A stretch of 32,000 nt of DNA, taken from the NCBI GenBank assembly GCA_965194335.1, contig OZ239141.1, positions 1,756,948-1,788,947 on the forward strand. Direction: 5' to 3'. Origin of the DNA: Burkholderiales bacterium (lineage in GTDB: Bacteria > Pseudomonadota > Gammaproteobacteria > Burkholderiales > Burkholderiaceae_A). Made by a program: the position numbers and the translations under genes. Shown here in pieces: positions 15,780 through 16,689 of the stretch (positions are counted from its first letter, which is position 1; each line of letters starts with the position of its first letter). Under the pieces are notes generated by a model. It was not told where the DNA came from. It saw only the letters and a list, made by a program, of their open reading frames with translations, and did not search any database.

Positions 15780-15866
15780 ATGACAAATACAGAGAGAGAG
15801 AGAGAGAGAGAGAGAGAGAGAGAGAGAGAGAGAGAGAGAGAGAGAGAGAGAGAGAGAGAGCAATAA
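15780..15866 (+). other. ATG-initiated 28-codon leader through the AG tract (MTNT(ER)n..Q*), currently out of frame with the methyltransferase ORF
   Basis: ATG 15780 has purine-rich AAAGAGAA 6-13 nt upstream. The frame runs through (AG)35 and stops at TAA 15864-15866. The +1 frame is open from 15784 into the 15913-16689 ORF. Confidence 0.6.
15791..15860 (+). repeat. perfect dinucleotide microsatellite (AG)35
   Basis: Counted directly: seven blocks of agagagagag, 70 bp in total. Confidence 0.98.
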
Positions 15867-15912
15867 TCGCGCCAAACGTAGCTTTTCAGCGCGAAACATT
15901 GTTAAACAACTC

Positions 15913-16689
15913 TTGCCGCCTATTGCTATAACTATCTTAAAAAGGGTTTTGGCAAAACAAGATTTAGGATTTGTAAACTATCCAAGTTGGGAGCAAGCTG
16001 AGCAAGCAAGTGAAGGCTATGACTCTGATAGCGTAATAGAGAAAGTAAGGAAAGCAGCAAAACTTGTATTTGACGGAGAAGCTGTGTATGAAAGAGATTC
16101 TGTAGTTTTTGACGAAATAGATTACTCATATCCTCTGTTGGCATCACTTCTTTTTGCGGCAGCAAACTCTGAAACTCTAAAAGTTATAGATTTTGGAGGC
16201 GGACTTGGAACAACTTATCAACAGAATCGCAGATTTCTTTCAAAGATAAACAGAACTTGCCAATGGCGTGTAGTGGAACAAGAAAAGTTTGTTTCTATTG
16301 GAAAACGTGAATTCACAAATGAAACACTCAGTTTTTACTCGACGATTGAAGAAGCATACAAAGATGGGGTTGATGTTGTTCTTTTTGGCGGCTCCATTTG
16401 CTACGTTTCAAATCCATATATTTTTATGGGGAAAGCAAAAGCAACACGAGCACCATACATAATCTTCGACAGAACACCAACAACAAACCTAAAGGAAGAT
16501 ACATTCGCTGTTCAGAACGTTCCTCCTTCCATTTACAAAGCTTCCTTTCCCATTCGAAACTTTAGCTACAACAACATCACTATGTATTTCAAAGATGAAT
16601 ATGATTTGATAGAAGAATGGGTGTGCGACTTACAAGCAGACCCCAATACATCAGCTATGGGTTTTATTTTTAAACGCAAATCAGACTAA
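15913..16689 (+). CDS. class I SAM-dependent methyltransferase (resembles the TIGR04325 / LIC12133-type polysaccharide-locus family); probable phase-variable gene, real start likely ATG 15780 in the ON frame
   Basis: Has SAM motif I VIDFGGGLG, and GFVNYPSWEQAEQASEGYDSD...YERDSVVF matches my memory of TIGR04325 N-termini. The track start is a TTG with no SD. The ORF has no ATG until residue ~225, and the frame is open 129 nt further upstream. Confidence 0.7.
   Translation: MPPIAITILKRVLAKQDLGFVNYPSWEQAEQASEGYDSDSVIEKVRKAAKLVFDGEAVYERDSVVFDEIDYSYPLLASLLFAAANSETLKVIDFGGGLGTTYQQNRRFLSKINRTCQWRVVEQEKFVSIGKREFTNETLSFYSTIEEAYKDGVDVVLFGGSICYVSNPYIFMGKAKATRAPYIIFDRTPTTNLKEDTFAVQNVPPSIYKASFPIRNFSYNNITMYFKDEYDLIEEWVCDLQADPNTSAMGFIFKRKSD

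Follow-up and report, generated by a model that had tools for sequence, protein, structure and literature searches.

A long AG-repeat tract as a probable translational contingency switch of a TIGR04325-family methyltransferase carried by a small integrative element in an uncultured Burkholderiales bacterium

Phase variation based on simple sequence repeats is textbook knowledge for host-adapted pathogens such as Haemophilus, Neisseria, Campylobacter, Helicobacter and Mycoplasma, and to our knowledge free-living environmental bacteria are seldom considered in this respect. Here we describe a 32,000-nucleotide stretch of contig OZ239141.1 from an uncultured Burkholderiales bacterium (hereafter the window), in which 35 uninterrupted AG units lie between the start codon and the body of a methyltransferase gene of the TIGR04325 family, itself carried at the left end of a 5.9-kb integrative element. 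An earlier note on this DNA, made from the sequence alone, had read the arrangement as a simple-sequence contingency locus. The reading is supported by near-identical natural alleles that are in or out of frame and have intact gene bodies, and we conclude with considerable confidence that the tract is a translational contingency switch of the methyltransferase. The mechanism is of a known kind. It is new for the TIGR04325 family, and it is further set apart by the position of the tract close to the ATG, by the unusual tract length, by the small integrative element and by an uncultured Burkholderiales host that is not known as a host-adapted pathogen.

The closest precedent is the Type III mod gene mmyCImod of Mycoplasma mycoides subsp. 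capri, which is off with (AG)12 and on with (AG)10 (PMC3498834). In the out-of-frame reading of that gene a TAA codon directly follows the tract, and the tracts of its homologues vary, some of them being out of frame (PMC3498834). The window gene likewise has an AG tract inside a methyltransferase coding region with a TAA codon right after it. However, the product of mmyCImod is a DNA N6-adenine methyltransferase that belongs to the restriction-modification system of a host-adapted pathogen, and the tract of mmyCImod begins at nucleotide (nt) 320, whereas the window gene belongs to TIGR04325, has no DNA-methyltransferase match and no res partner, and carries its 35 units 11 nt past the ATG in an uncultured Burkholderiales bacterium. 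Helicobacter pylori also has dinucleotide tracts near the start codon that set the frame of the remaining gene, although these act on outer-membrane adhesins or a DNA cytosine methyltransferase of a gastric pathogen. The oipA, hopZ and sabA/B genes are examples, in which CT-repeat switches lie in the 5′ coding region of outer-membrane genes, and such H. pylori tracts are typically much shorter than the 35 units of the window. AG repeats are described for hpyAVIBM of the same species (PMC3411764).

The closest functional analogue is found in Campylobacter jejuni, where a simple-sequence switch acts on a glycan-modifying methyltransferase, a role that for the window enzyme is only putative. In that species poly-G switches occur on genes for capsule and flagellin-glycan modification, including methyltransferases, and alter surface structure and phage susceptibility. 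These differ from the window in using homopolymeric G tracts on chromosomal genes within the glycan loci of a host-associated species; poly-G phase-variable genes of C. jejuni are covered by the PhasomeIt survey (PMC6321876). A further parallel, this time in the mode of carriage, is offered by the gtr operons of Salmonella phages, which like the window combine a mobile element, a stand-alone surface-glycan modifier (presumptively so in the window) and phase-variable expression. These phage- or island-borne operons modify the O antigen (seroconversion), and their phase variation is epigenetic, through Dam and OxyR. Unlike the window, they involve no repeat-based switching, and their enzymes are glucosyl- or acetyltransferases. 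A full-text literature search found no paper that joins simple sequence repeats, phase variation, freshwater and metagenomes.

The start region of the window gene comprises the following features.

15717 to 15745, plus strand: promoter-like site TTCCCA-17 nt-TAAAAT from a consensus scan, about 35 nt 5′ of the ATG, with a presumed function
15766 to 15774, plus strand: Shine-Dalgarno (SD)-like purine-rich stretch AAAAGAGAA, read in the sequence, ending 6 nt 5′ of the ATG
15780 to 15782, plus strand: ATG start codon of the methyltransferase in its in-frame state, corresponding to the MTNT and MTNL starts of homologues, with an identical ATGACAAATAC context in the related loci L110 and L115 (both in frame)
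15791 to 15860, plus strand: perfect (AG)35 tract, the probable slippage-prone switch, which codes for (ER)n when in frame
15862 to 16689, plus strand: body of a TIGR04325-family class I S-adenosylmethionine (SAM)-dependent methyltransferase, 275 codons and a stop (NCBIfam, AlphaFold2, Foldseek)
15864 to 15866, plus strand: TAA stop that closes the ATG frame right after the tract at 35 units, read in the sequence and by translation
15913 to 15915, plus strand: TTG, the earliest ATG, GTG or TTG codon of the methyltransferase frame, a poor candidate start with no SD sequence and located inside a conserved K-x3-PP motif

Tandem Repeats Finder reports the tract with period 2, 35.0 copies and 100% matches, and a regular-expression count concurs, so the perfect (AG)35 that the earlier note placed at 15791 to 15860 stands. 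The only other dinucleotide run of at least five units in the window is a (GC)5 by the same count, and the 28 occurrences of (AG)8 all fall within the tract, compared with none in 100 dinucleotide-preserving shuffles. Because the dipeptide ER can be encoded by many synonymous codons, 35 uninterrupted units point to ongoing slippage rather than to selection on the peptide. Translation bore out the reading of the ATG at 15780, whose frame runs through the tract as MTNT(ER)n...Q and ends at the TAA at 15864 to 15866. The methyltransferase frame is +1 relative to this ATG and is open from 5′ of the tract to position 16689. Varying the number of units in silico confirmed the arithmetic proposed earlier, in which gain of one unit or loss of two fuses the ATG to the gene: 36 units give 303 residues and 33 units give 301, whereas 34 units give 49 codons and the assembled 35 units only 28. 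The window gene is thus in frame if the AG count is a multiple of three. In all lineages examined AATAA directly follows the tract and provides the TAA stop for one of the out-of-frame readings.

Initiation signals differ between the two possible starts. The duplex energy with the anti-SD sequence over the 20 nt upstream is −2.9 kcal/mol for the ATG at 15780 versus +0.4 kcal/mol for the TTG at 15913. The consensus match of the promoter-like site is, taken alone, no better than chance; the TTCCCACAAACAC...CACGTAAAATCAA stretch at this site is also kept upstream of homologues in loci L097, L110 and L101. That the TTG comes first in the methyltransferase frame and has no SD sequence agrees with the earlier note, but its statement that the frame holds no ATG or GTG before about residue 225 does not stand, because there are in-frame codons GTG 16084, GTG 16273 and ATG 16426, the last being the earliest in-frame ATG (residue 189 counted from 15862). 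All three lie within the catalytic domain, and therefore the argument about the start codon is unaffected. As a separate observation, a hairpin with a 10-bp stem (TCGCGC...GCGCGA) lies at 15867 to 15894, directly 3′ of the tract and within the coding region; it scored as terminator-like on the minus strand, and its CGCGC and GCGCG arms are retained in L097.

The protein matches NCBIfam TIGR04325 ("MTase_LIC12133") at 186.4 bits against a cut-off of 80 (E = 4.5e-55), which is its sole NCBIfam match; no Pfam model matches it, and a sequence search of the PDB with the protein gave no match. An AlphaFold2 model built from a 32-sequence family alignment (predicted local distance difference test score, pLDDT, 86.5; predicted template modelling score, pTM, 0.81) has a Rossmann-type class I methyltransferase core of alternating beta and alpha elements, with low confidence in the N-terminal 35 residues. 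In the same alignment residues D110, G112, G113 and G116 of the motif DFGGxLG, the glycine-rich SAM loop, are invariant. The GC content of the gene body is 37.9%.

Which start codon is used could be judged from relatives, of which a search of 5.8 billion proteins returned 358. The N-termini of close homologues read MTNTERESNKRAKRSFSARNIVKQLLPP..., MTNT-ER-ESNKRAKRSFSARNIVKQLLPP, MTNL(ER)1-5ESNKR..., MTAKKERERESNKR... and MR(ER)nE-SNKSLNK.... These proteins start at the same ATG context as the window gene and then carry an ER repeat of variable length exactly at the position of the tract, with (ER)0-5 at this site both within 90%-identity clusters and across about 57–99% identity. In every in-frame allele the upstream ATG is joined to the gene body. 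The alignment shows a nearly invariant K15 and an invariant P20, and K15 lies upstream of the TTG at 15913, which corresponds to L18; a start at this TTG, residue 18, would therefore cut into the conserved K-x3-PP motif. The earlier note had described a conserved N-terminal segment that begins 5′ of the TTG and had favoured the upstream ATG as the real start. Both claims hold, the former through K15 and P20 and the latter through the shared MTNT, MTNL or MR... starts and the common (ER)n site.

The region upstream of K15 is unconserved, and one homologue with 85% identity and no tract (L114) has its ATG just 5 residues before the PP motif, so that the enzyme can dispense with everything upstream of about residue 14.

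Note that public records obscure this start. The NCBI protein CAM8653226.1 is identical to the window product and is annotated from a false start, TTG 15949, on a 2,052,603-bp contig that also encodes the housekeeping proteins flanking the element, and gene callers use TTG 15913 for out-of-frame alleles such as P0122 and P0159. The false N-termini of out-of-frame alleles (P0122, P0124, P0136–P0146, P0159–P0165) are of at least three kinds, namely the TTG before PP, TTG 15949, and internal ATG codons that yield 230–234 residues. Because gene callers choose differing false starts, many artificially truncated versions of the protein are present in public protein sets, and the three false starts placed on this one gene serve as a warning about annotation.

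Tract states were read from the DNA of related metagenome contigs, with sampling aimed on purpose at out-of-frame candidates. Members of the MTNT lineage have 98–99% protein identity to the window (85% for L081) and those of the MRER lineage about 71–72%.

Window, MTNT lineage: 35 units, out of frame
L097, MTNT lineage: 10 units, out of frame
L110, MTNT lineage: 12 units, in frame
L115, MTNT lineage: 7 units followed by an interrupting AA, in frame
L101, MTNT lineage: 5 units, in frame, gene split further 3′ by an insertion sequence
L081, MTNT lineage at 85% identity: 3 units, in frame
L098, L099 and L100, MRER lineage: 11 units, out of frame
L109, MRER lineage: 11 units, out of frame
L116, MRER lineage: 16 units, out of frame
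L111, L112 and L113, MRER lineage: 13 units, in frame

The comparison of repeat number among relatives that the earlier note had proposed thus revealed a variable tract of 3 to 35 units with both frame states, the counts verified in DNA being 3, 5, 6, 7, 10, 11, 12, 13, 16 and 35. Protein records add in-frame alleles matching 6, 9, 12 and 18 units in the MTNT/MTNL lineage and 7, 10, 13 and 16 units in the MRER lineage; the (AG)18 allele, P0132, is known from its protein record alone. The most informative comparisons involve alleles with nearly identical bodies. L097 (10 units, out of frame) and L110 (12 units, in frame) share an insertion site and differ at none of 825 body nucleotides; their sources are two JGI samples with nearby identifiers. 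In the other lineage, L111 (13 units, in frame) has no difference in 840 nt from L109 (11 units, out of frame) and a single one from L116 (16 units, out of frame). Since gene bodies differ by 0–1 nt while tracts differ, the tract changes far faster than any other position, and these alignments indicate that tract change shifts the gene into and out of frame.

Other scans placed bounds on the distribution of the gene. A scan of metagenome contigs with the single protein gave no confirmed locus, an alignment-based scan of metagenome contigs gave 16 loci, few of them close, and a scan of genome contigs gave 80 loci with a best identity of 53%; no species-representative genome in that scan holds a close relative. 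Exact look-ups of the window product, with P0124 and with the open reading frame that starts at the TTG, retrieved nothing. Viral contigs yielded no match by protein pattern or by DNA pattern, annotated phages yielded none, and among annotated plasmids the tRNA was the only match. A 227-residue protein, P0128, was considered as a further out-of-frame allele and rejected, because its gene is split by an insertion sequence and the 5′ part with (AG)5 lies upstream of that insertion. At L101 (5775–7684, and also at L105 and L106) the homologue has (AG)5 in frame, and an insertion sequence that encodes an rve-family transposase interrupts it some 40 codons in.

The switch would operate through the hypermutable (AG)n placed between the ATG at 15780 and the conserved methyltransferase body. 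Slipped-strand mispairing at replication would add or remove AG units, presumably reversibly within a clone. In slipped-strand mispairing the mutation rate of a repeat tract rises with unit number, and a 35-unit tract should therefore be extremely unstable. When the count is a multiple of three the ATG would be joined to the enzyme via (ER)n; at other counts translation would end right after the tract, after 28 or 49 codons, and the enzyme would be poorly made or absent. The assembled copy, at 35 units, stands one unit below an in-frame state. Together with its own promoter-like region, the gene is cargo at the end of the 5.9-kb element in tRNA-Met. Toggled methylation of a surface glycan would generate populations mixed in their surface chemistry, which could hedge, for instance, against phage.

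A frameshift at a repeat might instead be an inactivating lesion of a decaying pseudogene, in cargo DNA that is being lost and with no reversible switch. The gene is indeed foreign (38% GC in a host of 53–54%), its methyltransferase frame lacks a usable start in the present state, and the homologue of another population is split by an insertion sequence. However, all five independent out-of-frame alleles (the window, L097, L098–L100, L109 and L116) have uninterrupted bodies of 275–280 codons, and the ratio of nonsynonymous to synonymous substitution rates (dN/dS) between lineages is 0.10–0.25, including pairs with out-of-frame alleles, which shows purifying selection on the gene body; these genes are therefore not decaying pseudogenes. 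In- and out-of-frame alleles with 0–1 nt of body difference moreover coexist in nature, and the tract has persisted in lineages as distant as about 57% protein identity and in hosts of 29–54% GC. We consider decay very improbable. It is also improbable, if slightly less so, that the tract is a mere variable (ER)n extension or leader of an enzyme made constitutively from TTG 15913 or another start, with repeat number at most tuning expression, possibly through an upstream short open reading frame, H-DNA (triplex) or effects on the mRNA. Such a role would fit the lack of conservation 5′ of K15, the absence of this region from L114 and the low confidence with which the N-terminal 35 residues are modelled, and a homopurine mirror repeat of 70 bp is in principle capable of forming H-DNA. 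Against it stand the TTG at 15913, which has no SD sequence and falls within the conserved motif, so that a start there would lose the near-invariant K15, and the fusion of the upstream ATG to the body in every in-frame allele. RNA folding of 15750–15960 was no more stable than that of shuffles (z = 0.59), which leaves a structured-RNA role for leader and tract unsupported, and because the tract is 3′ of the promoter-like site, an effect on promoter spacing does not apply.

The number 35 could itself be an artefact of assembly or sequencing, the true dominant state being perhaps 33 or 36 units, which would be in frame, or far fewer. The count is a single unit off an in-frame state, the source is an assembly of an uncultured "Burkholderiales bacterium", and all other tracts have at most 18 units. 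Misassembly does not, however, typically produce a perfect 70-nt tract with unique flanks, and the 18-unit ceiling is biased, because long tracts should be under-represented in short-read contigs. We regard an artefact as unlikely, with some real chance of being correct, and it would touch only the present state and not the existence of the switch. Several points do weigh against the contingency switch as we describe it. The assignment of the window gene as currently off hinges on 35 versus 36 units in an assembly consensus, and a mixed population could have been collapsed into a consensus of 35, or the units of so long a low-complexity tract miscounted. A TTG-initiated product, only 4–5 residues shorter than that of L114, might work if translated; a weakly translated product of this kind would perhaps be active, and the switch would then be high/low rather than strictly on/off. 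Among DNA-read tracts of at least 10 units, two lineages are in frame and five out of frame in this purposely aimed sample, which is near the one third expected without selection for the in-frame state. Finally, the tract polymorphism observed is one between metagenome assemblies. Nevertheless, the contingency switch very probably accounts for the tract.

The substrate that such a switch would control is suggested by family context. In Leptospira borgpetersenii a TIGR04325 gene is flanked by glycosyltransferase, flippase, WxcM-like and DegT genes in a lipopolysaccharide locus (PMC8055020). A sample of distant TIGR04325 loci has neighbours that include NAD-dependent sugar epimerases/dehydratases, a DegT aminotransferase and an MptE-like protein, and genes resembling GDP-mannose dehydratase adjoin close homologues. 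A DNA methyltransferase of the phasevarion type (Type III mod or Type I hsd) was rejected because Pfam gives no DNA-methyltransferase match and NCBIfam only TIGR04325. Pfam, NCBIfam and PHROG annotation identified no res or hsd partner among the genes of the element, and padloc reported no defence system and one sub-threshold match, leaving a defence role unsupported. The glycan-locus neighbours, together with the lack of a DNA-methyltransferase domain, a res/hsd partner or a defence match, make a surface glycan, for example O-antigen or capsule, the favoured target of methylation, a tentative preference that falls just short of probable. Two findings pull the other way. Foldseek against the PDB returned SAM-dependent methyltransferases of many specificities (probability 1.0, TM 0.4–0.5), those listed being mainly small-molecule and RNA methyltransferases, and since these are generic class I enzymes the substrate is not readable from the fold; moreover, the window's element contains no glycan genes. 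A full-text search found TIGR04325 mentioned in a single paper, there in a gene table.

The element that carries the gene has the following components.

15544 to 15589, minus strand: displaced 3′ half of the host tRNA-Met gene (direct repeat D5)
15590 to 21475, no strand assigned: low-GC integrative element of 5.9 kb with the switch gene at its left end, delimited by GC content, junction core and split tRNA
16681 to 17304, minus strand: tyrosine recombinase of 207 residues, catalytic domain only (Pfam Phage_integrase, 1e-26)
19745 to 21103, minus strand: tyrosine integrase of 452 residues (Pfam Phage_integrase, 6.4e-09; PHROG 216)
21206 to 21282, minus strand: complete tRNA-Met(cat) of the element (ARAGORN; Rfam tRNA, 75 bits)
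21477 to 21517, minus strand: displaced 5′ half of the host tRNA-Met gene (direct repeat D7, in-silico rejoining)

With 42.7% GC against 53–54% in its flanks, and with the 10-nt core GGATTATGAG at both junctions (15580–15589 and 21476–21485), this DNA is by its tyrosine integrase, tRNA target-site duplication and deviant composition a tRNA-gene-targeting integrative element. When the two halves of the host tRNA-Met are rejoined in silico, the result is a canonical tRNA-Met whose acceptor stem is perfect. The target tRNA is not rebuilt in the usual way: the host gene stays split, and the element supplies its own complete copy, 195 nt inside the right end, whose acceptor stem is self-consistent and of a different sequence from that of the split host gene. 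Rfam matched nothing but the tRNA. The 90%-identity cluster of the 452-residue integrase has 596 members. The genes of the 207-residue recombinase and of the methyltransferase are convergent, overlapping over the last 9 nt of the latter, and the matches of the recombinase to Xer and DNA-invertase models are weak and all under the cut-offs; a role for it as a promoter inverter was dropped, because no inverted repeats were detected that flank the promoter or would delimit an invertible segment. A DUF6641 protein and two open reading frames with no matches make up the further cargo.

At L097 and L110 the left end of the element, the same as in the window, adjoins a truncated IS3-type orfA (...WATIE) at ccattgag/taaaaatactc, which resembles the tRNA core ggattatgag/aaaaaacactc and marks a secondary insertion site; the element therefore uses other sites too. 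The upstream region of L097 and L110 has a 12-nt duplication (CACAAACACTTGC) relative to the window. We also observed a GTGTGTAAGC-like 10-mer that occurs 13 times in the window compared with 1.55 expected from shuffles. Ten of these copies are inside the element, nine of them on the plus strand, and the sites include 15646–15667, 21147–21156 and 21381–21401, with pairs near both element ends; they may be arm-type binding sites of the integrase. The arms of an imperfect 23-nt inverted repeat (15696–15718 and 21124–21146, 78% complementary) are set some 100 nt in from the left end of the element and some 350 nt in from the right; this repeat could be a recombinase site or due to chance.

The methyltransferase cassette is the sole part of the element that is common with other loci. 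At L111–L113 it is flanked by thyX and a glutaredoxin gene in a genome of 29–30% GC, where it looks native, and at L081 it is in a 38% GC genome. At L101, where the genome has 55% GC, it has a cluster of GDP-sugar genes on one side and a prophage-like region (ParB/RepB, serine recombinase, tail genes) on the other. The occurrence of the cassette in hosts of very different GC content indicates that the switch travels with the gene, and the composition of the window's copy (38% GC against 53–54% in the host) marks it as horizontally acquired.

Public metagenomes thus already hold natural in- and out-of-frame alleles that differ only in the tract, and the comparison of such variants offers a route to the function of TIGR04325 enzymes. 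The case also provides a testable handle on bet-hedging by surface modification in environmental populations. It is conceivable, though in our estimation somewhat less than probable, that abundant uncultured bacteria of the environment, both Burkholderiales (about 54% GC) and unrelated hosts (29–38% GC), share a mobile promoter-ATG-(AG)n-TIGR04325 cassette that would toggle surface-glycan methylation at the level of the population, probably as a hedge against phages or grazers, in which case contingency loci would not be confined to host-adapted pathogens.

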